Positions 1,279-31,451 of a stretch of DNA of 38,322 nt are shown here, in pieces. The notes beneath the pieces were generated by a model. The model ran no database searches. It had not been told where the DNA came from and worked only from the letters and a program-made list of their open reading frames with translations. This stretch comes from Klebsiella phage ST16-OXA48phi5.4. Position numbers and translations under genes: made by a program. The stretch's first letter is position 1, and every line of letters starts with the position of its first letter. The stretch lies in the sequence record MK416015.1. One strand, given 5' to 3'.

Positions 1279-2262
1279 TTACGCATCAGCACCACCTCTC
1301 AGCGGGTTAAGTGAGATTGCATCCTGGAGGTATTCGGGCGCAAAGTGAGCGTAGGCCATAGTTTGCTCAATTCGCGCATGTCCTAGGATCCTCTGTAATG
1401 TAATGATGCTTCCCCCATTAATCATAAAGTGCGTCGCGAAACTGTGGCGTAGTGCATGCGTCGCCTGGCCGGTCGGAAGATCAGGTTTTACTTCCCTGAG
1501 TATCTGCCTGAAGTCAGAATAAGACGCCTTACCAAATAACAACCCTCGTTTACCATCCGCTATGAGTTTTGCCACTTCCGCTGAAACTGGAACAGTCCGC
1601 TGCTTGTTACTCTTGGTTTTAACGAACGTCACACGGTTCTGTATGATGTGTTCCGCCTTGAGTCGAGCCGCTTCGCCCCAGCGAGCACCAGTACTTAAAC
1701 ACAGAACAGCTATCTTCTTGTTGTCGCCATCCAGTTTAAAGAGCAAGTGCTTGATTTCGTCCTCTGTCAGATAGCCAGTTTCTGGGACATCTTCTTTCAA
1801 CTTCTTCCGCCCTCTGATCGGATGTTCACCCGAAAACAACTCGGCCTCGATAAGCGCTGTGAACATGCCACTGATGCTGTTGAGATCACGGTTAATGGTG
1901 GAAGCTTTAATGCCCTGGCTTCTTCTTGCCGCGTAATACTGACTAATCAGCGCTTTTGTAATCTGAAAAGCACAAGGATCGTCGGTAATCCTGCAAAAAA
2001 TATCTAACTTGTTGCGGTTTATCCGACCGTGCTCATCATGCTTGCCTTTCAAATTCCACCAAAGCTGTATCAGTTCAGACAGATGCCGCTTATCCGTCGG
2101 TTTTGATAACCATTCTTTGGTGTGGTGGTTGAACTGGGTATGCTTCTCGAAAGCTACCGCTTCACTTTTCTTATCAAACTTCCTGCGGATACGCTTTCCA
2201 TTGCGACCAGCAGGCCTGATGTCCACTTCATATCGACCATCATCGAGTTTCTTAATAGTCAT
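1279..2262 (-). CDS. int: tyrosine integrase (P2 Int family); start set at ATG 2262 (MTIKKLDDGRYEV, GGAGGG SD) rather than ORF-track alternative start 2313
   Basis: N-terminus MTIKKLDDGRY.VD..P.GR.GKRIRRKF matches P2 Int; C-terminal HxxR...Y catalytic region (HALRHSFATHF, YAHF). Confidence 0.93.
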   Translation of the reverse strand: MTIKKLDDGRYEVDIRPAGRNGKRIRRKFDKKSEAVAFEKHTQFNHHTKEWLSKPTDKRHLSELIQLWWNLKGKHDEHGRINRNKLDIFCRITDDPCAFQITKALISQYYAARRSQGIKASTINRDLNSISGMFTALIEAELFSGEHPIRGRKKLKEDVPETGYLTEDEIKHLLFKLDGDNKKIAVLCLSTGARWGEAARLKAEHIIQNRVTFVKTKSNKQRTVPVSAEVAKLIADGKRGLLFGKASYSDFRQILREVKPDLPTGQATHALRHSFATHFMINGGSIITLQRILGHARIEQTMAYAHFAPEYLQDAISLNPLRGGADA

Positions 2263-2377
2263 AAGAAAACCCTCCGATGGGTGCGTTTGCCTTTCGGCCT
2301 CAACGCGTTGCAATTATGTGATGAATACTTTTCGACCAATAATAGACATTTGAAATGTATGTAGGACTGGTTAATTG

Positions 2378-2677
2378 TTAACCAGTCTTTTGGTCTGAGT
2401 GCTGCGAGGTTGTTAAGTCTTGCCCAAAGTGTGCGAGGGCCGGTGCGATTTGACCGGCTTCAGGCGAAACCTGATCGGTCATAAACCACAGTGTGTATTT
2501 CACGAATCTAGGGTGTTGGAAGATTTTCATGATTGGTTCAAGGCTCGCACTTTTTGTACCAGCCTCATAGCCAGAAAGTGTGCTGTAAATTACTCCTGTT
2601 AACTCGCTGAATTGCCTACGATTAAGCCGTTCTGACTCCCTGATAAGCTTCAACTTCTCTGAAATAGGGATTGACAT
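2378..2677 (-). CDS. C: immunity repressor (P2 C-like), 99 aa HTH protein
   Basis: size, position divergent from cox, HTH-like N-terminus (LNRRQFSELTGVIYSTLSGYEAG). Confidence 0.85.
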   Translation of the reverse strand: MSIPISEKLKLIRESERLNRRQFSELTGVIYSTLSGYEAGTKSASLEPIMKIFQHPRFVKYTLWFMTDQVSPEAGQIAPALAHFGQDLTTSQHSDQKTG

Positions 2678-2743
2678 AAAAACCTCTTTGGGAAAATATT
2701 ACGCGTATGGATAATAAATTTTCATTTGAGTAAGTCTCTTAAC

Positions 2744-2773
2744 GGGCAATTAAAACCCATTAAGAGCAATTAA
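2744..2773 (+). promoter_or_regulatory. direct repeats GGGCAATTAA / GAGCAATTAA 20 bp apart in C/cox divergent promoter region: candidate C-repressor operator half-sites overlapping Pe
   Basis: two 10-bp near-identical direct repeats at two-helical-turn spacing; P2 C binds direct repeats flanking Pe -10. Confidence 0.45.
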
Positions 2774-2797
2774 TTACCCTAAAGGAGAATGTAACAG

Positions 2798-3076
2798 ATG
2801 AGCAAACAGCTTGTAAGTAGCACGGATGCTGTGCCTTATCAGGAGTTCGCCAGACTCATCGGGAAAACCCCTGCAGCGGTGAAGGGCATGATCGAAAAAG
2901 GGAAGCTTCCTGTAATCGAGATGACCGATCCCCAGTCAACTTCTGGCCGTGCGGGCGAGTACTGGGTTTACCTTCCAGCCTGGAACAACGGCATGAAGCT
3001 GGCCTACGAAAGTCGTCCGAAGGAGATCAGGGAAGGGTGGTTGATGTGGCTTGGTCTCGGTGAGCCAGGTCGATAG
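2798..3076 (+). CDS. cox: Cox-like excisionase/transcriptional switch protein (92 aa)
   Basis: position first in early rightward operon opposite C; size equals P2 Cox; AAGGAG SD. Confidence 0.8.
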   Translation: MSKQLVSSTDAVPYQEFARLIGKTPAAVKGMIEKGKLPVIEMTDPQSTSGRAGEYWVYLPAWNNGMKLAYESRPKEIREGWLMWLGLGEPGR

Positions 3077-3096
3077 CCGGTTTCAGGAGAGGAAAC

Positions 3097-3315
3097 ATGA
3101 AGAACGGTAACCGCGGATCAGTATCACAGCTCAATAGCAAAACCAGCCTCTACTGTGGCTTTACTATTCTGAAACTCCCACGCAAAAAACCGTACAACCG
3201 CCAGCGCTATCAAATTACGCACACAGGCCATTATTACGGCATCGACTTTGCTTTATCAGAAGCATGCCGAACGATTGACAGAATCATGAGTAAAAAGCGG
3301 TTTATTGCTTTTTAA
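3097..3315 (+). CDS. hypothetical early-operon protein (72 aa)
   Basis: ORF with AGGAGAGG SD, in early operon. Confidence 0.55.
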   Translation: MKNGNRGSVSQLNSKTSLYCGFTILKLPRKKPYNRQRYQITHTGHYYGIDFALSEACRTIDRIMSKKRFIAF

Positions 3316-3330
3316 TCTCTGGGAGCGAAA

Positions 3331-3708
3331 ATGAAACTCGAATATGCAGACAAAATTAACTCGCTTTTACAATGCTTCCATTTCAATAAAGAGTTTCTGG
3401 AATGGAATCATGATTACTCTCTCCAGCTTTTACGCCATGGCGTATCCCACCTTTATCATTTCGCAATGCTTCAAGGCGAGAATGATGAATGCACTCTTGA
3501 AGAACTCCGCAACATCATTATTTCCGTCACCGATGGTGATATCCCTAAACCATACGACCTGCTATCTCTGGACGCTGAGCAACTGAAGAAGGCTATGAAG
3601 TTTGTTCAGCCGCAGGAGGTAACCGTAGAGGTTACACCGGAGATCCTGGAACACCTGAAACTGGGAGCTAGAGCCTCCTGGCGGCTGGAGCCCCCTCGCT
3701 TTAACTGA
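3331..3708 (+). CDS. hypothetical early-operon protein (125 aa)
   Basis: ORF with GGGAG SD. Confidence 0.6.
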   Translation: MKLEYADKINSLLQCFHFNKEFLEWNHDYSLQLLRHGVSHLYHFAMLQGENDECTLEELRNIIISVTDGDIPKPYDLLSLDAEQLKKAMKFVQPQEVTVEVTPEILEHLKLGARASWRLEPPRFN

Positions 3709-3723
3709 TCATCGGAGTACGCC

Positions 3724-3996
3724 ATGTTCACCGAAGAAAAAACATCCTTTGAACAGGAAATGCTGATTCGAGAAGCAGTGGAAAGTGCCGAGCAGGGGTT
3801 CACTGTACATCTAAAAAATGGCGCTCGTATCACCATTAGTTCAAAAAGCCCGTCTAAAGATTTAATCATTTACGGGCTCGAAAAAGCAATACGCGGTAAT
3901 CACGATCGCGCGCGAATGACCTTTATTGATTTCATGTATTACTGGCATGAAAGGATATTTAAGCAGATTAAAAGAAAACAGCGTCCAAACAATTAA
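3724..3996 (+). CDS. hypothetical early-operon protein (90 aa)
   Basis: ORF with SD, tight spacing. Confidence 0.55.
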   Translation: MFTEEKTSFEQEMLIREAVESAEQGFTVHLKNGARITISSKSPSKDLIIYGLEKAIRGNHDRARMTFIDFMYYWHERIFKQIKRKQRPNN

Positions 3997-4064
3997 TTAA
4001 CCCGCTTTAAAAATGACGGCATTCACTTTGCCGGGGATTCGTTTTGCCTTTTTCAGGAGGTTGC

Positions 4065-4289
4065 ATGTCGGTTACGTCAATAAAGCCGGAAGGCGGAATA
4101 AGCGATCCAGAGTTTATGGGAATCAGCACCAATGCGCGCAAAGGCGAGCGCGCCCACTTACTCGGATTGCTGCGCATTCGTATGGGCCTACTGAAAGAGC
4201 AAGGCCTTACCCCCGAAGAGATTTATTCAGCACTTGAGCAGTGGATAGCCAACCACGAAACAATCACCAGCGAGGGCAGTAGACCATGA
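4065..4289 (+). CDS. hypothetical early-operon protein (74 aa; ATG at 4065 after AGGAGG, ORF track shows TTG 4044)
   Basis: strong SD AGGAGG 7 nt upstream of ATG. Confidence 0.6.
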   Translation: MSVTSIKPEGGISDPEFMGISTNARKGERAHLLGLLRIRMGLLKEQGLTPEEIYSALEQWIANHETITSEGSRP

Positions 4290-4852
4290 ATCACGTAATG
4301 ATCGATTTGATTAACGTTAGTAAGAAACCGTCATCACCTCTGTGTGCCATTGAAGCTGTGTTTTTTGAACCCTCAACAGGGCAGATCGGAAAGGTTTTTT
4401 ATTCTTCGATAGACATTCGTAAATCTGAAAGCTTGAAGGGCCGTATCAGCATTAGTACGGCATTCGATTGGATGAAAAAAGACTCTCACTGGCGCGCCGA
4501 AGTGATGAGCGCAACCGAAGCTGAAGAAGATGCACTTTGCAGCCTTGCTGCTTTCATCGCCGACAATACCTGTCCCCGGAACGCGGCGTTATTCGTATGG
4601 TTCAAAGATGCCCCGGAAAAACTGGTTTCACTTCGTTATGCCGTGGATCGCTTAGAGGTGTCAGGCATTTTTCCTGAAGGCACAAAATATCGCTGCATTC
4701 GTTCACTTCTCGACCTTGCTGCTGCCACAGACTATGCGCCTCATGCGAGAAGCGCCCTGGCATGTTACACGCTCACTGACGCGCGATATCAAGCGGAGCA
4801 AGTCTGCGAAATCTGGCAGCGCTTAACCTCCCCACACATTGGATCGCTGTGA
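4286..4852 (+). CDS. hypothetical 188-aa protein; N-terminus resembles DnaQ-like exonuclease fold proteins common in P2-like early operons but lacks the DxE motif (IDLINVS)
   Basis: pattern M.HVMIDL....KP.S.L.AIEAVFF.P.TGQIG similar to phage exonuclease-like proteins; catalytic acidic pair not conserved. Confidence 0.5.
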   Translation: MNHVMIDLINVSKKPSSPLCAIEAVFFEPSTGQIGKVFYSSIDIRKSESLKGRISISTAFDWMKKDSHWRAEVMSATEAEEDALCSLAAFIADNTCPRNAALFVWFKDAPEKLVSLRYAVDRLEVSGIFPEGTKYRCIRSLLDLAAATDYAPHARSALACYTLTDARYQAEQVCEIWQRLTSPHIGSL

Positions 4853-4860
4853 GGGCCGCC

Positions 4861-5088
4861 ATGCATTCGCGTCTGTCTGTTGTTTGTAACGCGCCGTTGC
4901 CGGTTTGTAAGAGGGCGCTTGCCGCCCTGAATTGCTTTGCTCGTGGACAGCGTAATTACACCCGCGTCAAGCCACACGCCTATCTCGTGATCCGCATTGG
5001 CCTCCGTTGGCGTTTGCTCAGCAAAAACGGTGGTAAGCAGTGGCGACTGATGACCCATGAAACCTATAACCAGGAATGCCGCAAATGA
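4861..5088 (+). CDS. small hypothetical protein (75 aa; ATG 4861)
   Basis: fills gap between flanking genes, stop overlaps dam start. Confidence 0.4.
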   Translation: MHSRLSVVCNAPLPVCKRALAALNCFARGQRNYTRVKPHAYLVIRIGLRWRLLSKNGGKQWRLMTHETYNQECRK

Positions 5089-6041
5089 TTAAGTCACCTC
5101 TTAAATGGGCTGGCGGTAAAACCCGCGTGTTGCCGGAGCTGCTGAAACACTTACCCAAAGCCGATTGCTTGATTGAGCCTTTTGTAGGCAGTGGCACAGT
5201 CTTTATGAATACGGAATACCGCCGCTATGTGCTTTGTGACAGCAATCGCGCACTGATTAATTTCTTCCTCGCGCTCAGGGAAGACCCAGAAAGATTGATA
5301 CTGATCGCCAGGAACGTATTCAGAAATGGCAATAACGAAGATAGCTATTACGAAGAGCGCAAGTTGTTCAACCACCTGTCGTGGGATGACGAGTGTGCAG
5401 ATGATTACGTTGTACGGTGGGCGGCATCATTTTTATACCTGAACCGCCACTGCTTTAACGGGCTTTATCGCACCAACAGGGATGGCGGTTTCAATGTTCC
5501 CTTTGGCAGCTATAAGGCGCCTTATTTTCCAGAAGCAGAAATGCGCCTATTTGCCGAAAAGGCGCAGGATACTCACGCGCTCTTTCTTTGTAATGATTTT
5601 CGTACTTCCATTCCGTACGTCGCCAGGAATAGCCTGGACTCCGTGATTTACTGCGATCCGCCGTACATCCCGACTAGCAAAACAGCCAGTTTTACCCCTT
5701 ACGGCAAGCCATTTACCCTGGATGATCACCGCGCTTTGGTTACGGCGTTGCTGGACGTTAATCGTCAGCATGGAACGCGCTCGGTCATCTCGAATAGCGA
5801 CACACCAGAAACACGCCAGATCTACTCCGCTTTCAATCTCCACGCATTCAGAGTTCGACGTTCCGTTAGCGCCAAAACCCGCCATATTGCCGGTGAAGTG
5901 ATTGGCGTACTTCGCGTGTGCGGCGGTTGCGGTCGTTCTGGTGGTGGAGGTTGCCCGGACTGTGGGGCGGTTATGGGCGATGCGGCATATGCCGAAATGT
6001 TTGGCGTGCCGGCTTGTTGTGGCGTAGCCCAGGCAAAATAA
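5076..6041 (+). CDS. dam: DNA adenine methyltransferase (Dam family, GATC-type N6-MTase) with C-terminal Cys/Gly-rich tail
   Basis: N-terminal LKWAGGK..., FVGSG SAM motif, DPPY catalytic motif (IYCDPPYIP); extra ~45 aa tail CGGCGRSGGGGCPDCG. Confidence 0.9.
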   Translation: MPQMIKSPLKWAGGKTRVLPELLKHLPKADCLIEPFVGSGTVFMNTEYRRYVLCDSNRALINFFLALREDPERLILIARNVFRNGNNEDSYYEERKLFNHLSWDDECADDYVVRWAASFLYLNRHCFNGLYRTNRDGGFNVPFGSYKAPYFPEAEMRLFAEKAQDTHALFLCNDFRTSIPYVARNSLDSVIYCDPPYIPTSKTASFTPYGKPFTLDDHRALVTALLDVNRQHGTRSVISNSDTPETRQIYSAFNLHAFRVRRSVSAKTRHIAGEVIGVLRVCGGCGRSGGGGCPDCGAVMGDAAYAEMFGVPACCGVAQAK

Positions 6042-6058
6042 GATAACGACGGTGAGCT

Positions 6059-8110
6059 ATGCCTGATTCCACAGCCCTGGCATGGAGCTGGAATGCCCAA
6101 CGGCGGGCTATTAATCCAAGCAACGCCGAAGAGTCTGCAATTGAGTATCTCACCCCAAAAGGCGAGCGTAAGGCACTTGCCTATAGCGATCTTGTTGATG
6201 TTGTTTATCGGGTACCGTTGCGCCCTCGTGATGGGGAGGCGCGCAGGGCATTTGATCGCACAAGACTGGAGCGTCATCTGCGGCGCCGCGTCCAGGCTCT
6301 CCCTGCGTTTATCCGCAAGCGTTTTTCAATGCACCTGGAAACTCTGGACCGTAGGAACCCGAAAGAGGCTGTACGCTGGTTATTCAATACGTTTGAGCGC
6401 CATGTATTGCGTCGAGTTGATGCGGTAAACGCACAATATCTGCCACAAGGTAATCTGCCTGCAATTCTCTTTCCGCTACGTGATGATTTTCATCTGCTGC
6501 CATGGGCAGATAAAAAGCGCCTGAAAAGACTGGCGTATAAGCTCGCGAACCTGATGAAAAGCGAGTTTATGCGCGAGTTTGATTTTCGGTACGAGAAAAC
6601 GGCAGATGTGGAGTTTTCCACGATCTACGCTTACGGCGCCATTGCCAGTAAAGCGACCTCACTCAACATTGCAATCCCTGGTTGGAAACAGTATTGCGAT
6701 GAAGTACTGACAGCAGAAGATGCATTACGTGTCATTGCTAGACTTCAAAAGGAAAAGTGGTGGCTAGGTAAGCTCCGCAAAATTCATGACCGCTGGCGTG
6801 AGCACCTCATGATCGCCACTAGCTACGTCAGCAAAGTGGCATCCCCTTATTGCTCTGAACCTTGCCTCAGGGAGTGGGTAGCTCAAAAAAAAGCCAACTT
6901 TGAATACCTTCAGGCGATGGAGCTGGAAGACCAGGACACTGGCGAGCGTACCTCCTTGCTCGACAAGGTCATGGGCAGCGTTTCCAACCCGAAGATCGCC
7001 CGTCACGAATTGATGGTGCGCATGCGCGGTTTTGAGGATATGGCTAACGAGATGGGACTGGTTGGCATGTTCTACACATTGACCGCACCGTCACGTTATC
7101 ACGCCACGCATGTGCATTCCGGCAAGCGCAACGATAAATACTGCAATGCCAGCCCACGCAAAACTCAAAAGTACCTTTGCAACGTCTGGTCGCGTGTCCG
7201 CGCCAAATGGGGGAGGGAAGGCATCCGCACATTTGGTTTTCGTGTAGCCGAACCACATCACGACGGAACACCACACTGGCACCTGCTGTTATTTCTCCGC
7301 CCTGAAGAGGTGGAGCTTGCCACTGATATTTTTCATGAGTACGCCCTCCAGGAGGATGGAAACGAACGCGGCGCGGCTGAGTATCGTTTTACTGCCAAAC
7401 TAATTGATGAAGAGTTTGGATCGGCAACGGGATACATCGCGAAGTACATCTCAAAAAATATCGACGGTTATGGAATGGATGGCGAGTTTGATCACGAGTC
7501 AGGCAAGCCCGTTAAAGAGATGGCAAAGCGCGTGCGGGCGTGGGCTTCGCGCTGGAGTATTCGCCAATTCCAGCAGATTGGTGGCGCGCCTGTATCCACC
7601 TGGCGGGAGCTGCGGCGGCTAGGAAGTCGTGAGCTTATCTTGCTCCCGGAACTTGAAGCTGCCCGCGCTGCTGCTGATGCGCCCGACTGGCCGGGATACA
7701 TCAACGCCCAGGGCGGCCCGTTTGTAACCCGTGATTGTCTGCGCGTGCGCCTCCATTACGAATACACCGAAAACGGCAATGATTATGGTGACACAGTCGC
7801 CAAAATCACCGGCGTCTATTGTCCTTTTACGATCAGTGAAGCGGTCATTTATACTCGTACCAACGATTACAAAATTGTACCGAAACGTAAGCCATCGCCG
7901 GTCGAGAATTTGACCTTAGAAGGCCGCGACGCGGCCCCTTGGAGTTCTGTCAATAACTGTACGGGTCGCGCCGAATCGGACGAAAAACCACCACCACTAA
8001 AGACAGAACTTACGCAGAATGTCGTCGATTTCATAAGATATTCACGCCAGCAAAGGCAGGAGATCAGCGAAAGTTTGAGGCAAGATTTTGGTGAAAGGTC
8101 AGATATATGA
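6059..8110 (+). CDS. A: replication initiation protein gpA (rolling-circle nickase, P2 A family)
   Basis: FGFRVAEPHHDGTPHWHLLLF and YIAKYISK motifs characteristic of P2 A; position before cargo hotspot. Confidence 0.92.
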   Translation: MPDSTALAWSWNAQRRAINPSNAEESAIEYLTPKGERKALAYSDLVDVVYRVPLRPRDGEARRAFDRTRLERHLRRRVQALPAFIRKRFSMHLETLDRRNPKEAVRWLFNTFERHVLRRVDAVNAQYLPQGNLPAILFPLRDDFHLLPWADKKRLKRLAYKLANLMKSEFMREFDFRYEKTADVEFSTIYAYGAIASKATSLNIAIPGWKQYCDEVLTAEDALRVIARLQKEKWWLGKLRKIHDRWREHLMIATSYVSKVASPYCSEPCLREWVAQKKANFEYLQAMELEDQDTGERTSLLDKVMGSVSNPKIARHELMVRMRGFEDMANEMGLVGMFYTLTAPSRYHATHVHSGKRNDKYCNASPRKTQKYLCNVWSRVRAKWGREGIRTFGFRVAEPHHDGTPHWHLLLFLRPEEVELATDIFHEYALQEDGNERGAAEYRFTAKLIDEEFGSATGYIAKYISKNIDGYGMDGEFDHESGKPVKEMAKRVRAWASRWSIRQFQQIGGAPVSTWRELRRLGSRELILLPELEAARAAADAPDWPGYINAQGGPFVTRDCLRVRLHYEYTENGNDYGDTVAKITGVYCPFTISEAVIYTRTNDYKIVPKRKPSPVENLTLEGRDAAPWSSVNNCTGRAESDEKPPPLKTELTQNVVDFIRYSRQQRQEISESLRQDFGERSDI

Positions 8111-8319
8111 GTGTGCCGCATAAAAAATTGCACATGTCGAATTATGATATCTATGTGCTGTCGTGGGGGGGCAAAGGTTACCGATAGTAAAGATATGAGT
8201 ATGACATAGGAAGATGCGGATCTGCGCTGATATGAGCGGCTACAACTAGTAGCGAAACGGTGGGCAGAAAATTATGACGCTATGGGTGCTGAATTTTTGA
8301 GGAAAAAAGCCCCGCAAAC

Positions 8320-8640
8320 TTGCAGCCGCTAAAGAAGAGATATGCGGAGCTAGAAAGCTTAATAAACGAAAAGGCAATAGTAATTGTTTGCGATAAACTG
8401 CGCACCTACTGTTTCTTCGCCAGCGATAAAATAGTGAGATCGAATGTTAGCAACGCTAGCATTCGGGACGGCGGACAAGTTTACGCTATCAGTAGTGGCA
8501 TTCTGCGACAGGCAACAGTTGATGATTCTGGTAATAAAGTAGGATCAATAACCGAATACATAGCAGCGTATGAACTGGTCGTGCGCTGGAAGAAAACAGC
8601 TAGCAAAAATTCCAAGGCTGAAGTTGAAAGTAAACAATGA
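8320..8640 (+). CDS. hypothetical 106-aa ORF in cargo island; only a TTG start is available (no Met in ORF), so coding status doubtful
   Basis: ORF track only; no ATG, weak SD spacing. Confidence 0.25.
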   Translation: MQPLKKRYAELESLINEKAIVIVCDKLRTYCFFASDKIVRSNVSNASIRDGGQVYAISSGILRQATVDDSGNKVGSITEYIAAYELVVRWKKTASKNSKAEVESKQ

Positions 8641-8930
8641 AATTATTATATATCAGCAACTCCGATGGGGGCGACTCAACAGAACATCTAATCTTTAACA
8701 GCCATATAGCAGTGATTGTAGAGCACGATCATGAAGAGTCTATCAATTTATTAGATCACAAAGATTAATGCCATGGCTAACTTTTCGCGAAGGCTAAAAA
8801 CCATAAAGAATATGAATTTTACTATATATTTATAAGTGATGTATATTAATAAGTCATAGCTTAACTCTAATTATTAGAGCAAAAGTAAATTTGCGCATCA
8901 TGTTTAATACATAACGCGCAAATCTGTTAA

Positions 8931-11201
8931 TTATAGTCTGTTTGAAAGTTCATCATTGTAAGTCAATAATCCCTCGGTTACAGCTGTTTCGAGTAATGGA
9001 CTTATTTTTTGAGTCTTTTCAGCTATAAAAACAATTTGATATTTAGCCCGTGTTATAGCCACATATAATTTATTAAATGATGAGTAATTAATGAAGTGCA
9101 GAGATTCTCCAGTATAAGTCGATTGTTCAGGGAATTTGTCAGAATCAGCACCAACAATCACTACGACTGAAAATTCCAAACCACCTATATAATCCATCCC
9201 TCCTATTACATAAAGGTTGTTTGTGGCTGCAGCTTCTACAGCTAAATTATCACCACGCCTTTCAATTGATATATATTCCTTATCATTTGATTCAGCAAAA
9301 TTTTTTAATTCCTTGAAAACTTGATCTGTACATGGGACTATTAAAACATCACTTTTTGAAATATCTAATTCTTGAGCAATATGATCAACAAAAGAGAAAG
9401 ATGCTCTGTAAACTTCAGAAGCATTTTGTTTGGTTATTATATATGGGACACAGCATTTATCCTCAATCAAAGATGTATGGCCAGTCATCGATTCTGCCAA
9501 AGGATTTTCTAACTCCTGAAATAATGTAGCCCCAGATGCTAAAACACAACTTGCTAGATTTATGATATGTTCAGAAGAACGAAATACAGCACTTAAACCA
9601 TGCTCATTTGCTAAGTTGGCATCAAGTTCTTTGGCTACATCTTCTTTGGTTATAGTCGTATCTCCGGTTGCTTGACTTCGATCCATTGTAAATACAATAT
9701 GATTAGAGTTGGGTTTGAGGAGATTATGGAATAAACTTAGCTCATTAATATTAAAAAGATGTGTCTCATCAATATACATAATATCAAACCCAGCGGTCAT
9801 TCTACGCCTTTTCCATATCGGAGTTGACGTTTCTTTAAGCGCGGATAGAGTAATGTCGTCACTATCAAACAAGTTTAATGCTATAAGTTTTTCTTGATAT
9901 TTATTGTAAATCGAGAATATAGTTTTAAAATCATCATCGTTCTCTATTGGGATGATATTTTTGGTCCTGGGAAGTGACATATAGGTCTTAAGATCATCAC
10001 CAGCACGACCTTTAATATACGTTGATATTTCCTCTTGGAGTAATATAGATATGCCCCAAGGATCGTTATTGCCAAAGAACTTCTTAAGTTTAGGCGAAAT
10101 GAAATTAAGTGAACCAGCATAATCCTTGATGAAAAAATCCTCTAGTGCTTCATTTATGTAAAGTAGTTGCAACTGTTTTGACTCTAATGCATCACTATCA
10201 AGATATTCAGTTGCAGATATTCTATTACCTAAATTATTTATGCACCATTCTTGTAGAGTAGTAACTTCAATTGACTGTAATTTACCAGAGTTAATGAACT
10301 CATCTCCACCGTTAGACGCTATTAAATTTTCAATGTTATTTTTAGTCGCTATGCTGTGAGTTATGAAGATCGCTCGAAGTTGGTTGTCCGTTTTTTTGGC
10401 ATTTTTGAGTTGAACAACAGATCTCAGGATTAAGCTTAATGTTTTTCCTGTTCCTGCAGCTCCTTTAAGAATGTCTGGCCCAAAGCTTTCGCTGAAAACA
10501 AATTTCTTTTGGCTTTCTGTTAGGTTTTTTGTCCAGTAATCTAAGCCCATATGAGGATTGTTTAAATTCCCCGCTTCATGAATCTCGCTAACACTTAAAT
10601 AAGAACTTGATGGGTCTGATTGGTTTTCAGAACTTTTAAATAAAGTGAGGGGGTCTATTTCCAAAAATCCTTCTTTTGCCTTTCGGAAATTAGCTAGCTT
10701 GGGTTCGTTCTCAGCTGTATCATACCCATCTTGAAAAATTAAGAAGCTACTTTCATTCCTTTTTTCTTGCCTTTCCTTATCCGGAGATTTATCAAGTATT
10801 ACTTTATAAGATTTTCCAGTGGTAAATGAGAGCGGTAAAAGGGCAATTAATGATGTACCATTAATTATTTTTTCGCAGGGACTATGACCAATTTTATCCC
10901 ATAGCTTAATAGCTAATCTACACGATTTTTGAAGAATGGTAACAACTTCACTACTACTCCTTTGAAAACCATTAAATGTAGTGGTATCGAATATCAACAG
11001 GTTTTTCTTATTTGGGTTTTTACTTAAAATATAAATTCCGGAGTTTATAGACAAGGCTTTAATGTCTAAACTGAAGTCGGATATTTTACCATCTTTTAAT
11101 AAGCGTGCCAAAATTTGGCCCTTGTCGTAATCTGCAGACTGAAGCATCCTTTCCGATACTATTTTCCGCGCTGCATTACTTTCTATAGCAATAAAGTTCA
11201 T
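8931..11201 (-). CDS. SF1 helicase-family ATPase (Upf1/AAA_11-AAA_12-like) with ~230-aa unknown N-terminal domain; cargo gene in P2 tin/old hotspot
   Basis: Walker A GAAGTGKT, motif II-like YIDETH, C-terminal GGLEFSVVVIVG ... LYVAITRAK (SF1 motifs V/VI); 30-35% GC versus ~55% phage backbone. Confidence 0.75.
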   Translation of the reverse strand: MNFIAIESNAARKIVSERMLQSADYDKGQILARLLKDGKISDFSLDIKALSINSGIYILSKNPNKKNLLIFDTTTFNGFQRSSSEVVTILQKSCRLAIKLWDKIGHSPCEKIINGTSLIALLPLSFTTGKSYKVILDKSPDKERQEKRNESSFLIFQDGYDTAENEPKLANFRKAKEGFLEIDPLTLFKSSENQSDPSSSYLSVSEIHEAGNLNNPHMGLDYWTKNLTESQKKFVFSESFGPDILKGAAGTGKTLSLILRSVVQLKNAKKTDNQLRAIFITHSIATKNNIENLIASNGGDEFINSGKLQSIEVTTLQEWCINNLGNRISATEYLDSDALESKQLQLLYINEALEDFFIKDYAGSLNFISPKLKKFFGNNDPWGISILLQEEISTYIKGRAGDDLKTYMSLPRTKNIIPIENDDDFKTIFSIYNKYQEKLIALNLFDSDDITLSALKETSTPIWKRRRMTAGFDIMYIDETHLFNINELSLFHNLLKPNSNHIVFTMDRSQATGDTTITKEDVAKELDANLANEHGLSAVFRSSEHIINLASCVLASGATLFQELENPLAESMTGHTSLIEDKCCVPYIITKQNASEVYRASFSFVDHIAQELDISKSDVLIVPCTDQVFKELKNFAESNDKEYISIERRGDNLAVEAAATNNLYVIGGMDYIGGLEFSVVVIVGADSDKFPEQSTYTGESLHFINYSSFNKLYVAITRAKYQIVFIAEKTQKISPLLETAVTEGLLTYNDELSNRL

Positions 11202-11992
11202 TATTTGGCATCCATTATTGTTGTTAATAATTTACTATGGTGATTTGCAACGCCAACCCTAACGAAATTATTAGTAAAACGCTGCATAAGTAATTCAATA
11301 AATGGTGACTTGAGTTGGCCTACAATACTGCAAAACTTATTTGTTACATTTATGTTTAGGCCTGAATAATTTTCACCATTATCTAGTTCAATACCATTTG
11401 GTATTTTTTTTGCTAAGGAGATGTTCAATTCATAAATTTCTCTTAGGTTGACAACAACAGAATTGTAACCATCAACATTATCAATAAAAAAATAGTCAGG
11501 GTTTTTATTTTCGATTATATCTTTGAGGGCCTTTTCACATTCATCTCGAAAATGGATAATAATTTTTTCATATGCTGAGTTTTCATCTAAGCAATTTATT
11601 TTAGTTTGAAGTGAATCTAGGCGTGTTAATTCCCTGTTATTTAGTAAATTCTTTTCTTTTATTACGGCGTATATCCTGTGATAACCATAAGTTGTAACAT
11701 TGAGTTCTGAGAAAGATGCTTTTTCAAGAAGCTCAAGAAATTGTCTTTTTAAATTTTTAAAAACTTGCTTTTTTACTATTGGTTGTAATTCTTTATCTCT
11801 CCAGATGCTGAATGGAACTGCTGGAATAAAATTGTAAAACTTAACCTTTTCTTTATTTGCAATATCACATCTTGCGGTGATCACAAGACCTAAAGTTTCA
11901 TTGTTAGGGTAAGAGGCTGAGTAAGCACAATTAAAAATTGTCCCTTGGGTTAAAGTCCTATCATCCGTAACATCAACCATGTCACGTTGCAT
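11201..11992 (-). CDS. hypothetical 263-aa protein, upstream partner of the helicase (ATGA start/stop overlap = translational coupling)
   Basis: ORF, AT-rich like its partner, overlaps helicase start by 1 nt; no recognisable motif. Confidence 0.65.
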   Translation of the reverse strand: MQRDMVDVTDDRTLTQGTIFNCAYSASYPNNETLGLVITARCDIANKEKVKFYNFIPAVPFSIWRDKELQPIVKKQVFKNLKRQFLELLEKASFSELNVTTYGYHRIYAVIKEKNLLNNRELTRLDSLQTKINCLDENSAYEKIIIHFRDECEKALKDIIENKNPDYFFIDNVDGYNSVVVNLREIYELNISLAKKIPNGIELDNGENYSGLNINVTNKFCSIVGQLKSPFIELLMQRFTNNFVRVGVANHHSKLLTTIMDAK

Positions 11993-12539
11993 AAAATCTC
12001 CTTATTTTGAATATCAGAGCCCTAAACTATAAGTGCTTTATCATCAATCCTTTGACTTGGATTCTGATGAAATGTACTTATGGTTTCTTATCTATTATAT
12101 ATACATACGATGAATAATTATCAATAACATTTCATTATAAGTTTTGGTTGTTTCATGGATGCCTTGAATTTAGCTACCGTTGCTTTTGTCAATGGAATTT
12201 TTATGATTGTTTGATTTAAATCAATAAATTTAATGTAACTGTATGATTTTTATTGGGGTGGCGTGCTCATTTATTGGAAAGCTATGTTCTCCATAACATT
12301 AGTGCACGTTGTACTTCGATGATGTTTTTTTATTTGATATGGACTATCCATAACGAACGCTAATCAAATTGACTAAATTCTCCTAACCCAGCTATACAAA
12401 AGATTTAGATACTTCTACTAATTGACTGGGAAACATCCTAGTGAGTTAAATGTGAAAATTAGTGGTTGTTATTGAACTTATTTGCACAAAATTGCAAATG
12501 ATCTATTGATATCGATATTTCGTGTATTGCGCCACAGTA

Positions 12540-12836
12540 GGTATGCAGCTCTGATTCTAAGCATGCACGAAAAAAGGAAGGATAGTTGCGCGCAGGTGAC
12601 GGGGGGCAAGCCCCCGCAAGCGGGTCAGGGTAGGGAAGGCGGCAGAATACGCAATTTGACGGTTTCTGCGTCACGGTGAGCGGTCGTTTTGGTTGGAGGC
12701 ATGCCCTTGGGAAAAAGCAGCGACGCGCAGAGGGGCGCTGATGCGGGATTTTTTCAGCAGAAAAGATGAGGCCAGCGAAAACGCTGGCCTGTTATAAATG
12801 GCTGATGTTGTTTAAAGAAACTGAGTTTTCTGGCGG
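12540..12836. other. GC-rich non-coding block immediately downstream of portal gene Q: probable cos / packaging site region (by P2 analogy)
   Basis: P2 cos lies between old-side cargo and Q; G-rich tracts (GACGGGGGGCAAGCCCCCGCAAGCGGGTCAGGGTAGGGAAGGCGGCAG) reminiscent of P2/186 cohesive-end sequence; not verified. Confidence 0.35.
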
Positions 12837-13898
12837 TTATTTCTCAGCGGTAAGCAATGCGTAAGGGTTAAAGCGGATCACTTCTTCTCCGATCCACTCA
12901 TTGACCACCTTCAGCGCCTCCATTACGGGCGTCAGCTCGTTGATAGCGTAGACCCGGGCGGCTTTCTCGATATCCCCAAATGAGCCGTTTCCCTCTGGCA
13001 TGGCGCCCATCAGCTGCGGCGGGATACGGTGCGCTGCGAGTATGTCGTCACGTGTGGCGTTCTTAATGTTGATAAACTCATCTTTCGCCGTGATCTGCTG
13101 GAAGGGGAGGATTTGCACGCCGTCTTTGCCGCCGCCTGGCGCATGCAGCAGCAGGTTTTTAAATGCCCCTTTCCCACGCGCACCGGTCAACGTCTCTTTG
13201 ACTGCCTTCATGCTTTTATCATCAACCTGTCCAGCGCCAATATAGACAATACATCCAGCATGCGATCCGTTGTCGTAGTACAACTTACGGAACATGTCAG
13301 CGGAGTGGGCCAGGCTGGCGGCCAGCAGTGCTGCCATATATTCCGGCATACCGTAGACCTCCTGATTAATATCAGGGTTCAGAACGTGACAAACCGTTCC
13401 TGATTTGAACGTGTGCTCTTCTTTCCAGCGCCGGATAAACCAGTATTGATCGAGATCTGTGCTCCCACGCCGGGTGTACTTCGCCAGAGAGTGTTTGAAG
13501 GGTAGCGGGCCGCCCAGGCGATTACGCGGCAATTCGAGATAGGCATTGCCAAACGTGAACCAGTCCAGCACAAACGCGGAAAAGGTCTGGCGATTGAGCA
13601 GCTTGTGCGGGATAAAGCAGCCGGTGAGCACATTTCGTTTGAAATACAACGCTGACTCATGCCAGGCGCTCTGACGTGGAGCTTTAGCCAGCCCGTAAAA
13701 ATCCACTGGCGTCTCATAGTATCGCCCGTTGTCCAGGCAATAGAGATTGTCCAGCAAATCGGCCATATCACGCACGGGATAAGGGCCATCAAAGCTGAAC
13801 GCTGTCAACGCGGGATCGGCCTTCAGTGACTCCGCAATGTCAGAACCGGCGGTGCTGGCTATCGGCTTTTTACCGTATTTCTTTTTCACAGTTACCAT
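12837..13898 (-). CDS. Q: portal protein gpQ
   Basis: size 353 aa, position, P2 Q-like sequence. Confidence 0.9.
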   Translation of the reverse strand: MVTVKKKYGKKPIASTAGSDIAESLKADPALTAFSFDGPYPVRDMADLLDNLYCLDNGRYYETPVDFYGLAKAPRQSAWHESALYFKRNVLTGCFIPHKLLNRQTFSAFVLDWFTFGNAYLELPRNRLGGPLPFKHSLAKYTRRGSTDLDQYWFIRRWKEEHTFKSGTVCHVLNPDINQEVYGMPEYMAALLAASLAHSADMFRKLYYDNGSHAGCIVYIGAGQVDDKSMKAVKETLTGARGKGAFKNLLLHAPGGGKDGVQILPFQQITAKDEFINIKNATRDDILAAHRIPPQLMGAMPEGNGSFGDIEKAARVYAINELTPVMEALKVVNEWIGEEVIRFNPYALLTAEK

Positions 13899-26705: not shown

Positions 26706-26914
26706 AAACATTCAATCAATTAAAAAGCCTGATCGACTTTTGTCAGACCGATGCGTTTTTCCTGGAACACCTGAACCGACTTCAGATCGCTGGCGTGATT
26801 TATCTTGATGAAGGCGATATCGATGCTGACCACAAGACCGTGAGTGATGATTTTTATGATCGACTTGCCAGCGTGTACGGCATTGAGCCAGAAATAAAAA
26901 GTGAGGAGGCATAA
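26702..26914 (+). CDS. small acidic protein (70 aa), translationally coupled between gpI-LRR and gpH
   Basis: ATGA overlap with upstream stop and TAATG overlap with H start. Confidence 0.55.
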   Translation: MKTFNQLKSLIDFCQTDAFFLEHLNRLQIAGVIYLDEGDIDADHKTVSDDFYDRLASVYGIEPEIKSEEA

Positions 26915-28011
26915 TGGCCACGGGACTGACACTAACCACGGCGGGCGCCGCCGAAATCGAGGCCGCGTATCAGGCGGGGGAGGTTGTGCATATTACCTCC
27001 GTGCTGATCGGCGATGGTGGCGGCGTGACATTGCCGGCTGATCCCGATGAGCTGGCGGCGGTGACGGCGCTTTTTGGACAGTTTGGCCGTGAAACCTTTG
27101 ACTCTGATTCAAGCTATGAGGGGTTTATCAGCGGGCAGATCGTTATCAACTGCCAGGATTATCCGGGTAAAACGCTCAGAGAAGCGGGGCTGGTCAGCGC
27201 TAAGGGTACGCTCATCGCTTACGGCACATACCCGGCGACATACCTCCCGGCGCAATCGGATTCCATTATTAAAGAGATCATGCTGACGCTGGTGTTGACG
27301 CTGACGCACAGCTCAAACGTGCAGCTTGTTATCGATCCGGCGCTTGCCACACTCACGCAGGAAACAGGTGATAAACGCTATCTGCGGCGAGCACAAAATC
27401 TTTCTGATTTAAACGATCCCAAAGAGGCCAGGGATAATCTTGAACTGGGTAACTCAGCTACGCGGGACGTGGGCACCGAGACGGGAATGGTAGCTGCGGG
27501 GGATGACTCGCGCATAACCGGCGCACTTCAGAAAGAAAATAATCTTTCCGATCTGAGCGATACATCCGAAGCCCTGAAGGCGCTGGGACTCAACAGCGAC
27601 GGAGCGGCTTATAGGGCTATTGTTGACGCTATTTTTTACGTTGGGATCATCATTTCAGGTGAAAAAAGCCCAGCAGAGCGTTTCCCTTGGCAGACGTGGA
27701 CGGATTTAAGCGAAACCTTTGCTGATAGGGTTGTCAGGATTGGTTCTCAGTATGGTGTGACCGGCGGCAGCAACAAGGTGAAGCTTGAAGCCGATAATTT
27801 GCCTCCACACTGGCACCGTTCTGGTGATAGGTCTCCGGGAGCAACTTGGGATCCCAGTGCCACTCACGGAACAGATAACCAGAAAAGTGGTCCGCTAGCG
27901 CTCACTGAAGGAACCTACATCGATGCGGCAGGTCTGAAGGCGTCCGTAAACAAGGATTTTGATGTGACTAACGAATATACAACGTTGTGTATGTGGAAGC
28001 GAAAGGCATAA
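26914..28011 (+). CDS. H: tail fibre protein gpH (short form, 365 aa) with C-terminal tail-collar-like domain
   Basis: N-terminus TTAGAA...ITSVLIGDGGG matches conserved P2 gpH N-terminal domain; C-terminal LPPHWH ... TLCMWKRKA resembles tail-collar domain motif. Confidence 0.82.
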   Translation: MATGLTLTTAGAAEIEAAYQAGEVVHITSVLIGDGGGVTLPADPDELAAVTALFGQFGRETFDSDSSYEGFISGQIVINCQDYPGKTLREAGLVSAKGTLIAYGTYPATYLPAQSDSIIKEIMLTLVLTLTHSSNVQLVIDPALATLTQETGDKRYLRRAQNLSDLNDPKEARDNLELGNSATRDVGTETGMVAAGDDSRITGALQKENNLSDLSDTSEALKALGLNSDGAAYRAIVDAIFYVGIIISGEKSPAERFPWQTWTDLSETFADRVVRIGSQYGVTGGSNKVKLEADNLPPHWHRSGDRSPGATWDPSATHGTDNQKSGPLALTEGTYIDAAGLKASVNKDFDVTNEYTTLCMWKRKA

Positions 28012-28503
28012 AAAATGTGTGTTTGTTCAGAGTTGCTCCTTCATAAAATAAGAAATGAGTAGTGGTGGATATGAAAATCTAATAGCCTGTAAAGCGTATC
28101 CTCAATTATCCGTAGATGAACAATTATTCTTAAGGTGGCCTCGCTGGCTTTGATGCTGTGGTCAAAAGAACATAGATTGATGCTGAAGTTTGTTAAATGT
28201 GGAGAAGCTCACACGGCGTTTTTTAATCAATTTATTTAAACGCACAGATCTGGTGAAATACAGTTTTTAAGTTATGAAATGGCTTGATTTAAATTTTGAT
28301 AAATGAGTTCTTTCTGATTGGGTTTAATAATCATTGATTAAATTAATAAGCATTTCAACAGTAATGGCTGAAGTCTCAAAAATGGATTTCCAAGATTTTT
28401 GTGAAAGGAAGGTTTAGATGCTTACATTGTCATTTTAAACCTGAGTGGTTTCTAAATATTAAGGTGGGTTAAAGCATTTTAATGAATTTTAGATGTATTA
28501 AGA

Positions 28504-28544
28504 GGGAGGTGAATTAAAAGATGCTGTTTATACATATATTTTGA
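28504..28544 (+). other. 7-codon mini-ORF (MLFIHIF) with strong SD GGGAGGTG, upstream of the DUF262 gene
   Basis: read directly; possible leader peptide, speculative. Confidence 0.2.
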
Positions 28545-28558
28545 AATGGATTTTTTTG

Positions 28559-28598
28559 TTGTTGTATGGTATCATGTACTGTAGTATGACATAATTTC
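28559..28598 (+). promoter_or_regulatory. candidate sigma70 promoter for DUF262 cassette (TTGTTG ... TAGTAT / CATAAT)
   Basis: hexamer-like elements 20-50 bp upstream of ATG 28611 in AT-rich leader. Confidence 0.3.
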
Positions 28599-28610
28599 AG
28601 AGGAATTAAA

Positions 28611-29834
28611 ATGGAAGAAAAACATTCGTTAGAAGAAAATGCCATAGCTGTTTCTGAAAGTGACGATCTCGAGATTATCGAGTCTAATCAAGATATAATA
28701 AGTGATGATCCTGTTACAAAGGAAGACATTGAAAATCTTGTAATTTATTCGCGGGATTGGACTATTGAAACAATAATTAGCCAAATAGAATCTGGGAATA
28801 TTGATCTCAACCCTGCTTTTCAAAGGAGAAATGTCTGGGAAAATGATAAGCGTTCTAAGCTAATTGAGTCATTTATTGTAGGGTATCCTGTTCCAGAAGT
28901 TGTTTTGGCTGAAATACCAGGTAAAAAGAAACAATATGTTGTTATTGATGGTAAGCAACGCCTTCTTGCCATTCATGGTTTTTTTAAACCTGAAAATAAA
29001 TATTGGAAAGGTAAGGCTGAGTTAAAAGGATTAACAATTCGTAAAGATTTGGAAGGTGTTTCATTTGATAGATTAGATGGAGATGACCTTAGGCTGTTGA
29101 ATAACTCAGATCTAAGATGCACCATTCTATCAGGATATCAAACAACAGCTGTACTTTACGATGTATTTTATCGTTTAAATACTGGTTCTGTACCTTTGTC
29201 GATGCAAGAACTAAGAAATTCATTACATAAAGGAGATTTTTCTGTTTTCATAACTGAGAAGACTAACTCTGAAATCCCACTGCATGCTATTATGTCATTG
29301 CCAGGTCCAGATAAAAGATTTAAAGATATTGAAGTAATGCTTAAGTTTTTAGCCCTTAACTTTAATAAAGACAAGTATAATGGTAATTTAAAAGTTTTCC
29401 TAGACGGGTTTACAGAATATGCTAATCAATCTTGGTCTTCTAACAATAAACTTATAACCAATGCTTGTGATGAGTTTGATCAGGCGTGTTTATTATTGAT
29501 TGATATTTTTAACACTCCAAAACTAGTCGGTAGAAAATGGGTTCCTATCAAAGATAATTGGGAGTCGAGATTTAATCGATCTGTTTTCGAAGTTTTAGTT
29601 CAGTACGCATTTAATATAATCAAAGATGGCAATTCTGCATTATTTTCCGGTGATAATGAAAAAAATGATTTTATAGAGTGTATAAAACAAGCATTCACAG
29701 GGCAAGAATTTGCAGCCTCTGTATCGACTACGACAAAAACAGTTGAACAACATTCGATAAGATTTAATGTTTTATTTGGCATTTTAAATAGCAAATTTGG
29801 TTTGCATTATACTCTACCTCAGACAATTCAATAA
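28611..29834 (+). CDS. DUF262-domain protein (ParB/Srx-like NTPase domain as in GmrS/SspE/BrxU type IV restriction modules), 407 aa; cargo in P2 Z/fun hotspot
   Basis: signature NPAFQRRNVW ... VVIDGKQRLLAI (DUF262 FQR..W and DGQQR motifs); ~33% GC. Confidence 0.75.
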   Translation: MEEKHSLEENAIAVSESDDLEIIESNQDIISDDPVTKEDIENLVIYSRDWTIETIISQIESGNIDLNPAFQRRNVWENDKRSKLIESFIVGYPVPEVVLAEIPGKKKQYVVIDGKQRLLAIHGFFKPENKYWKGKAELKGLTIRKDLEGVSFDRLDGDDLRLLNNSDLRCTILSGYQTTAVLYDVFYRLNTGSVPLSMQELRNSLHKGDFSVFITEKTNSEIPLHAIMSLPGPDKRFKDIEVMLKFLALNFNKDKYNGNLKVFLDGFTEYANQSWSSNNKLITNACDEFDQACLLLIDIFNTPKLVGRKWVPIKDNWESRFNRSVFEVLVQYAFNIIKDGNSALFSGDNEKNDFIECIKQAFTGQEFAASVSTTTKTVEQHSIRFNVLFGILNSKFGLHYTLPQTIQ

Positions 29835-29851
29835 TAAAATGAGAGGGCGAA

Positions 29852-30514
29852 ATGGACTATTCAGTTGATATAATGAAAGCCTTCGATACTCTGGTTAGAG
29901 TAAATACGAATCTTTACAATAGATATATATTACCACATATAGGCGTTGTAGACTCAACTGATGAGGTGTTTTCCTTAGACGTTAAATCATATTTAATATT
30001 GTTGCATGCAGCCATTGAGGACTACATAGAAGGAATCAGTGTCTTCACTAGTAATGCAGCTTGCGAGCTATTCAAAAATGAAGGCAAAATAACCTTGCCA
30101 CTTATGTTTTTGTTTGCAAAAAGTAAATCATTCAAAGACAGAGTATCCGATAAAAAATTATCAGAAGAATTACATGACTCTCCGCGAGATTTTATGGTTA
30201 GTTCGTTGGGGGATATTAACGCAAATGCAGTTGCAGGTGCGATTGATAATAATGGAATAAATGTCAGGTATCTCAATAATCTTTTGCAACATTGTGGCAT
30301 TAATTTTGATGTGTCTGAAAATGATTTTATTAGTTGGAAAAGTTTAGCTGACTATAGAGGTGATTATGCTCATGCAGTGGTATTTAATCATGGCAAAAAG
30401 CCTAAGGCGACAAAGCTTATATCACCAGAGGATGCTAGAGATCTAGGTAATGATTGCATCAGATTTTCGGAAAAGATAAGAGATGAAGCATTAAGTAGTT
30501 TAGGTTTAAATTAG
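29852..30514 (+). CDS. 220-aa partner protein with HEPN-like Rx4H motif (YRGDYAHAV) near C-terminus
   Basis: follows DUF262 gene by 17 bp, same strand, same low GC; R-x4-H motif; assignment is inference. Confidence 0.6.
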   Translation: MDYSVDIMKAFDTLVRVNTNLYNRYILPHIGVVDSTDEVFSLDVKSYLILLHAAIEDYIEGISVFTSNAACELFKNEGKITLPLMFLFAKSKSFKDRVSDKKLSEELHDSPRDFMVSSLGDINANAVAGAIDNNGINVRYLNNLLQHCGINFDVSENDFISWKSLADYRGDYAHAVVFNHGKKPKATKLISPEDARDLGNDCIRFSEKIRDEALSSLGLN

Positions 30515-30523
30515 AGGCTTATA

Positions 30524-30552
30524 AGGCGAAAGAATTAGTTTCGCCTTTTTTC
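30524..30552 (+). terminator. rho-independent terminator after cargo cassette (AAGGCGAAA-loop-TTTCGCCTT + T5)
   Basis: 9-bp perfect stem followed by TTTTTT. Confidence 0.75.
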
Positions 30553-30977
30553 ATTCTTTCAGTGTAATAGTGGTGAAATATATATTTTAAAATGTTTGGT
30601 TTTTTTAACAACCAGCTTACTCTTGCTATTCGTGGTCGCTACCAATTTGGCAGAGTTCTTCGAAGTAAATATATAGACTATGCATGATTTGTCTTTTGGT
30701 TGCTGGATATATCTCACTTCATTTGTAAGTTTTTTTTGCTAACCTTAATTATGGGGTGGTGTGATTTTTGTTGACCGATGTGTAAAAATGTTTGTGTTTT
30801 TAGAAGCTGTGGTAATTGTAAGTATTCAGTGTTTGCAGATTATTGGATTCTATCTATTTGGAGTGGGAATAATCTCTATGGTCAGGTCTGAGCTTATGTG
30901 AAATACGTTCAGTAATGACTGTTTTTGTCTATGTCTAGTACCATAATAATTATTTTCTGCATTGAATATGAGGTCAC

Positions 30978-31451
30978 CTAGCGTATTTTAGTTACATCTG
31001 ATACCGTTTTGGCTCCATCCTTCAGTATTGCCATCATGTCGCTGACGGAAGAACTATGCAACCTCTCCCTGATATCCTCATCAACCCGCTGCAACGAGAG
31101 TGTGAACTCTATTTTTTTAGCTTTACCGTAACGATCCAACTCCTGATGCGTCTCCTGTAAACCCGTGATGACATACATCCCGTAAATCGAGCCAACCCCA
31201 TCAATCAACGGCCAGGCAAGCCCGGTGTAAGCCATTGTCGAGACCGCACCCAAAGACAGGTTGTCTCCAGTGATTTCAGGGTACAGCAGCCCACCCAACG
31301 TCAACTGGTTCTCGCCGGCGCCAACGTACTGCCATTTTGCGCTCCGGCCCACCCGGTCATTCTTAACGTGCCGCCAGTTACGTGACAGCTGCAATTGCTG
31401 ATAGGGCAGCGTCCTGAGTTCAAATACAAAGAGACCGAATACCATCATCAT
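30978..31451 (-). CDS. U: tail protein gpU
   Basis: MMMVFGLFVF...WQYVGAGENQLTLGGLLYPEITG matches P2 gpU. Confidence 0.9.
   Translation of the reverse strand: MMMVFGLFVFELRTLPYQQLQLSRNWRHVKNDRVGRSAKWQYVGAGENQLTLGGLLYPEITGDNLSLGAVSTMAYTGLAWPLIDGVGSIYGMYVITGLQETHQELDRYGKAKKIEFTLSLQRVDEDIRERLHSSSVSDMMAILKDGAKTVSDVTKIR

Follow-up and report, generated by a model that had tools for sequence, protein, structure and literature searches.

What is encoded by the low-GC cassette of two genes that separates replication gene A from the cos side of Klebsiella phage ST16-OXA48phi5.4, and does it belong to any system already described? Within the 38,322-nucleotide stretch of this phage that was analysed as a whole (MK416015.1; hereafter the window), a 263-aa protein, referred to below as the partner, is encoded directly upstream of a 756-aa helicase. 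An initial annotation, made from the sequence alone, had regarded the two as a candidate anti-phage system that could not be placed in any known family. By fold and literature, and not by any hidden Markov model (HMM) match, a placement can nevertheless be given: the pair is very probably the Klebsiella, P2-like-prophage copy of Liu-DS1, an abortive-infection system also termed "type II Gabija" (GajC-GajB) and composed of a MazF-fold protein and a UvrD-type helicase (Liu et al., bioRxiv 10.64898/2025.12.08.692795, Dec 2025; Nucleic Acids Research, Apr 2026, PMC13069673).

Liu-DS1 gives E. coli protection from 20 of the 70 phages tested; at a multiplicity of infection of 5, cultures carrying it collapse, which points to abortive infection. 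Its defence is abolished both by the GajB substitutions K252A-T253A and by glycine substitution of the beta1-beta2 loop of GajC (PMC13069673; bioRxiv 10.64898/2025.12.08.692795). In the preprint, GajC bears the number DS1-1 and GajB the number DS1-2, and the prevalence in E. coli is given as above 1.5% (bioRxiv 10.64898/2025.12.08.692795). Beyond the work of Liu et al., a literature search found neither another name for the pair nor another paper using GajC in this sense.

Examination of the window bore out the coordinates and strand first proposed for the two open reading frames (ORFs), as well as their description as a two-gene operon of a helicase and a small partner. The elements on which the comparison with Liu-DS1 depends are as follows.

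11201..11992, minus strand: ORF of the partner gene (GajC-like), 263 aa
8931..11201, minus strand: ORF of the helicase gene (GajB-like), 756 aa, with a superfamily 1A (SF1A) core at about residues 227-756 and an N-terminal extension of about 225 aa
10440..10463, minus strand: Walker A (motif I) GAAGTGKT, helicase residues 247-254, whose K253/T254 are the equivalents of K252/T253 in the E. coli homologue
11198..11204, minus strand: gene junction AATAATG, with the TAA stop at 11203-11201, the ATG start at 11201-11199 and one base shared

Several features link the window pair to the published system. The gene order is gajC followed by gajB in both; in GajC, as in the window partner, a MazF-like fold is split by an insertion of five helices; and GajB is a UvrD-family protein with an intact Walker A motif and an additional domain to which Liu et al. 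assign no function, a description that also fits the window helicase with its N-domain of about 225 aa. A further link is provided by an E. coli homologue pair (WP_001696616.1 and WP_001610298.1; 61% and 74% identity to the window proteins, respectively), in which the Walker A Lys and Thr carry exactly the published numbers, K252 and T253. A megablast search brought up no E. coli variant other than this pair, which is present in 109-113 of 5,426 complete genomes, a prevalence of about 2% that compares with the reported value of more than 1.5%. The two differ in setting: the window pair is a variant from Klebsiella and lies in the hotspot of a P2-like prophage, whereas the E. coli pair is carried on a plasmid. 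Correspondence with a named two-gene system, which the initial annotation had expected to appear as a confident HMM hit if it existed, is therefore found in substance, through gene order, split MazF fold, extra N-domain and Walker A numbering, but not as an HMM match.

The assignment of the partner comes from structure prediction. An AlphaFold2 model (predicted local distance difference test score, pLDDT, 89.8) displays a beta-core interrupted by five helices at residues 61-160, with strands at 18-23, 33-37 and 52-60 before the insertion and at 167-190 and 223-227 after it, and a C-terminal helix at 231-247; in this model, the partner is a split MazF/CcdB fold. Residues invariant across the family are Q16, G17, F20, Y28, I38, A40, R41, C42, D43, K49, W64, G200, S229, P230, E233, Q237 and G247. 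Sequence libraries were silent: no match to the partner was obtained in Pfam, PADLOC or PHROGs, neither PemK nor CcdB Pfam models nor any recurrent toxin family matched 43 members of the partner family at E<=10, and profile searches of the partner and of the helicase N-domain against PDB sequences returned chance matches only (optineurin, PPAR-gamma). When the partner beta-core without the insert was aligned by hhalign to approximate MazF/Kid sequences, the probability was 0.08%, and this alignment was not used as evidence. The NCBIfam model for an anti-phage dCTP deaminase was also considered for the partner and rejected as noise (16.5 bits against a cut-off of 400).

The helicase carries clearer signatures. 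PF00580 (UvrD-helicase) matches at 36.4 bits (cut-off 23), accompanied by weaker UvrD_C and AAA_30 matches, and these, together with the motifs, identify it at the sequence level as a UvrD/Rep-type SF1A enzyme. In an alignment of 34 family sequences, the SF1 motifs are all invariant (Q231, G247-T254, T281-H282-S283, D478-E479, D507/Q510, R541, G673-F677 and Y713-R718). The four motifs on which the initial annotation had relied, namely GAAGTGKT, YIDETH (476-481), GGLEFS (673-678) and VAITRAK (714-720), are thus present and invariant, but the Upf1-like AAA_11/AAA_12 class that had been read from them gives way to UvrD/Rep SF1A, with neither PF13086 nor PF13087 matching the window helicase at E<=0.1. 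Against the PDB, the family profile yielded weak matches at E<=0.01 to PcrA, AddA, UvrD, FBH1, HelD, UvrD1 and Rep, and a single-sequence phmmer search with the helicase gave no match. PADLOC returned partial matches only: GajB was the best (1.9e-12, 44.7 bits) and covered residues 424-553 alone, and the AbiO and RTasHel (DRT-associated helicase) matches were confined to the motif II region (E ~1e-8). Since PADLOC 2.0 and the 2025 Pfam release both miss the pair, the hotspot would appear empty after defence annotation.

Several considerations weigh against the identification with Liu-DS1, or against the mechanism that its name implies. Identity with the system that was actually tested is drawn from the published description, residue numbering and prevalence, and the phage protection data belong to the E. 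coli system and are carried over to the Klebsiella proteins by likeness. The "Gabija" label is itself weak, its sole basis being a distant helicase of SF1A type: the partner shows no relationship to GajA, the PADLOC GajB matches are partial, and no PDB chain named GajB is reached by the family profile at E<=0.01, unlike PcrA, UvrD and AddA. For the partner, no sequence homology to MazF could be detected in the PDB profile and Pfam searches, and the counterparts of EcMazF R29, where beta2 begins, and T52, where beta3 ends, were placed on the partner by topology and not by structural superposition and are variable in its family. Position 34 is occupied by Leu in 18 sequences, Arg in 8, His in 7, Tyr in 5 and Cys in 3; position 60 by Pro in 17, Ser in 14 and Thr in 4; and position 62 by Arg in 16, Asp in 8 and Glu in 5. 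The fold is also shared by CcdB, which is not a nuclease. Because the MazF positions are unconserved, MazF sequence homology is lacking and CcdB has the same fold, the published view of GajC as a nuclease effector is plausible but unproven.

Comparison with other known systems sharpens these points. The window operon resembles canonical Gabija in being a two-gene defence operon with an SF1A UvrD-like helicase and weak, partial PADLOC GajB matches. It differs in that GajA, an OLD-family ATPase with a TOPRIM nuclease, is absent, and in that the window helicase has an N-domain of 225 aa, a domain presented as additional relative to B. cereus GajB in the preprint (bioRxiv 10.64898/2025.12.08.692795); in the PDB search with the family profile, solved GajB came out no nearer to the window helicase than PcrA, UvrD or AddA. 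From the MazF/Kid/CcdB toxins, the partner is set apart by the 100-residue insertion of five helices and by its pairing with a helicase, and it lacks a MazE- or CcdA-like antitoxin, a PemK/CcdB Pfam signal and conserved R29/T52 positions. Hachiman HamAB, Mokosh type I, AbiO and DRT-associated helicases share with the pair a logic in which a helicase or ATPase sensor is coupled to an effector. The architectural resemblance to Hachiman or Mokosh that had been noted at the outset did not hold up in PADLOC, where no HamA, HamB or Mko model matched. Hachiman was rejected, in addition, for the absence of DUF1837 in Pfam and for a helicase of SF1A and not SF2 type, and Mokosh type I for the absence of both MkoA/MkoB in PADLOC and a PLD domain in Pfam.

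The N-terminal extension of the helicase can be divided into two parts.

10899..11201, minus strand: putative RelE/ParE-like subdomain, helicase residues 1-101 (beta1, alpha1, alpha2, beta2-beta4, alpha3)
10506..10898, minus strand: second N-terminal subdomain and a low-confidence linker, helicase residues 102-232, with conserved E110, P123, R144 and R148

In the predicted model of this domain (pLDDT 83.7, good across residues 1-190), the first ~100 residues follow the beta-alpha-alpha-beta-beta-beta-alpha order of elements found in RelE/ParE toxins, and residues Q21, G55, D72, Q91 and K92 are conserved within residues 1-101. With moderate confidence, this part of the model may be described as a RelE/ParE-like fold, a feature that would be new beyond the report of Liu et al. 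The best Foldseek match of the N-domain, HigB, was not significant (E 0.07), and no RelE/ParE sequence signal emerged when the N-domain profile was compared with the PDB or when family members were scanned with Pfam at E<=10. The earlier suggestion of a NERD/PD-(D/E)xK-like nuclease domain in this region was not upheld by the fold search. Members of the RelE/ParE superfamily (YoeB, YafQ, HigB, RelE, ParE) are free toxins of ~90 aa, whereas the window domain is fused to a helicase. Taken with the variable active-site positions of the partner, the N-domain casts doubt on the "Gabija" label as well as on the nuclease mechanism that has been assumed.

The pair is far from confined to this phage and constitutes a conserved mobile module found across phyla. 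The exact window helicase (100% identity) appears in 3,236 index blocks, most of them from Klebsiella, and at all six places examined that carry it, the layout portal-partner-helicase-gpA is the same. A plasmid-borne defence system of E. coli, validated only recently, would thus also be very frequent in Klebsiella, carried there as cargo of P2-like prophages, and this has a bearing on the host range of phage therapy in K. pneumoniae. The partner family consists of stand-alone proteins, nearly all of 250-300 aa, which form 1,197 clusters at 50% identity, and at every locus examined a helicase neighbour is present. Alphaproteobacterial partners of ~27% identity lie directly upstream of a UvrD helicase of 761-765 aa. 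A gene of 266-280 aa similarly precedes distant relatives of the helicase in Bacteroidales, in a metagenome contig and in Vibrio parahaemolyticus, and the three upstream genes matched the partner profile with an hhalign probability of 100%.

The genomic contexts of the pair are mutually unrelated, several of them defence-like or mobile, and they include chromosomal and plasmid sites outside phages. At one locus a ParE/PhD pair adjoins it, and at another DUF1016 and a group II intron reverse transcriptase do so. In V. parahaemolyticus, an identical pair has one flank that differs by strain (an acyl-homoserine lactone synthase and a sensor kinase, or GemA-like and IspA genes), and this difference indicates recent mobility. 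The E. coli copy is found exclusively on large conjugative plasmids, many of them from avian and extraintestinal E. coli isolates. On plasmid pSA186_2 (NZ_CP022731.1, 1-14804), transposase remnants, ISNCY and IS4 among them, lie on either side of the pair, and a MacB/TolC efflux operon adjoins it.

The position of the cassette in the window, which from known P2 gene order we take to be that of tin/old, agrees with the initial annotation: replication gene A lies on one side and the cos side on the other, and both flanks could be identified.

8111..12560, no strand assigned: the whole low-GC cargo island, between gpA and the cos/portal side
6059..8110, plus strand: gpA-type replication nickase (phrog_91, E 1e-252)
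12837..13898: portal, in the flank with the large terminase (phrog_68, phrog_5751)

The low GC content of the cassette was confirmed, at 0.311 for the partner gene and 0.344 for the helicase gene against 0.52-0.55 in gpA and portal, as were its AT-rich non-coding flanks. From the gpA stop codon to that of the helicase gene, the spacer measures 820 bp (8111-8930; GC 0.39), some 570 bp of GC 0.31 lie on the other side, and homology with related phages picks up again at 12561. The notion that the pair is mobile cargo directed against phages, at a P2 hotspot of variable content, is supported by Klebsiella phage Kp4845-1, whose cos/portal flank is 95.7% identical and which carries an NsnB/HEC-03B/PDC-M55A-like ATPase cassette in place of the pair; the presence of other defence cargo at the same site makes this a true variable hotspot. 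That cassette (OK490394.1, locus 2184-6804) encodes a 648-aa ATPase with PADLOC matches to NsnB (6e-77), HEC-03B (8e-59) and PDC-M55A (8e-42), together with 338-aa and 250-aa ORFs without a PADLOC match, and may represent another incompletely described system. A published survey of P2/P4 hotspots (PMC13586616) mentions neither Gabija nor MazF, and its two uses of "helicase" concern other things.

How such a pair might act can be outlined tentatively, in a scheme whose details may well prove wrong. Both proteins would be produced from one translationally coupled operon; the UvrD-type SF1A helicase, with ATP, would engage a nucleic-acid structure specific to infection, for example the ends of phage DNA, single-stranded DNA or replication intermediates; this engagement would license a toxic activity for which the MazF/CcdB-fold partner is needed; and growth arrest or death of the infected cell before phage release would protect the lysogen population. 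Within this scheme, we infer what is sensed, any nuclease role of the partner, its putative substrate and the part played by the RelE/ParE-like N-domain.

A possible, though doubtful, alternative is that the system forms a family of its own outside Gabija, namely a helicase-gated "double toxin" in which a UvrD-type motor fused to a RelE/ParE-fold domain acts with an obligate MazF/CcdB-fold partner and both active sites are non-canonical. One toxin might then hold the other in check, or dock it, up to the point at which the helicase encounters phage DNA; alternatively, the targets might lie elsewhere than mRNA, in gyrase (as for CcdB and ParE) or in phage DNA.

It is unlikely, but worth serious attention, that the system is the same defence system with its roles redistributed. 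The partner would then be an adaptor, a regulator or a CcdB-like binder instead of a MazF-type RNase; the RelE/ParE-like N-domain of the helicase would serve as the effector, as a second effector or as the site at which the partner docks or is inhibited; and the whole would be a helicase-gated double-toxin module mechanistically unrelated to Gabija. The partner offers some encouragement for such an exchange, for it conserves neither an Arg where beta2 begins nor a Thr/Ser where beta3 ends, and its invariant residues are found elsewhere (I38, A40-R41-C42-D43, K49, S229-P230, E233, Q237). The N-domain speaks against it: its Foldseek resemblance to RelE/ParE proteins falls short of significance and is unaccompanied by Pfam support, and no RelE, YoeB or HigB catalytic constellation was recognised in it. 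The published loop-to-Gly mutant of the partner, which abolishes defence, also counts against it, in that it fits an effector role for that protein without proving one. The invariant R-C-D/K and SP-E-Q motifs of the partner, together with the helicase N-domain, provide concrete targets for mutagenesis.

An addiction or stabilisation module of toxin-antitoxin type, which would maintain the prophage or plasmid and not act primarily against phages, seems improbable. Folds of type II toxins in both proteins, the exclusive residence of the E. coli copy on large conjugative plasmids and the ParE/PhD pair beside one locus would all suit such a module, but the operon holds no third ORF and no small antitoxin-like ORF in the ORF list. 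Moreover, a 756-aa ATP-dependent helicase, whose Walker A motif is required for the phenotype, is always present; direct phage protection was reported by Liu et al. for the matching E. coli system; and the P2-like site is a defence hotspot occupied in relatives by other defence genes.

Least probable by far is a replication accessory beneficial to the phage, in which a Rep/UvrD-like helicase next to gene A would drive P2-type rolling-circle replication: P2 rolling-circle replication does rely on a host Rep-type SF1A helicase and the cassette does adjoin the gpA nickase, but the helicase gene is convergent with gpA and foreign in GC content, the pair is absent from the closely related phage examined, where other cargo is found, and elsewhere it resides in non-phage chromosomes and plasmids, always with a MazF-fold partner.

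Returning to the Liu-DS1-like operon itself, the junction of the two genes reads AAA TAA TGA ACT, so that stop and start overlap by 1 nt in TAATG and not in the ATGA overlap initially described; through this one-base overlap, partner and helicase are predicted to be translationally coupled. The signals recognised around the operon are listed below.

11998..12003, minus strand: Shine-Dalgarno AAGGAG, 5 nt before the partner ATG, read from the sequence
8887..8925, minus strand: terminator-like hairpin (stem of 17 bp, then a T-rich tail), beginning 6 nt past the helicase stop, from a consensus scan only
11993..12560, minus strand: AT-rich upstream non-coding region, GC 0.31, ~570 bp inside the island

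The hairpin is the probable end of the operon, and the native promoter presumably lies within 11993..12560. A promoter scan gave 18 calls against 18.7 expected from shuffled sequence of this AT-rich DNA, and no promoter is claimed because the calls do not exceed that expectation. In the spacer on the gpA side, a 106-aa ORF (8320..8640, plus strand) had no match in Pfam, PADLOC, NCBIfam or PHROGs and was not called in the six Klebsiella loci examined; on both counts it is probably not a gene, and the segment is probably non-coding or a remnant of former cargo.

Elsewhere in the prophage, a second low-GC island (window 28000-31000, GC ~0.32) separates a tail-fibre-like gene (26914..28011) from gpU (30978..31451) and presumably occupies the other P2 hotspot, at the Z/fun position. 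It contains an ORF for a 407-aa DUF262/GmrSD_N protein (28611..29834, plus strand) with PADLOC matches to NsnA (1.5e-61) and PD-T4-2_A (1.6e-34), followed by an ORF for a 220-aa RiboL-PSP HEPN protein (29852..30514, plus strand; 31 bits against a cut-off of 28.4) that matches no PADLOC model; judged by these domains, the two look like a two-gene defence candidate related to PD-T4-2 or Menshen. In a K. pneumoniae genome carrying the same prophage (locus 11165-12345, corresponding to window ~4800-6050), a Dam-type methyltransferase (PF02086) is encoded just upstream of gpA, and a 75-aa ParE_like protein (PF24732) is likewise encoded immediately upstream of gpA.

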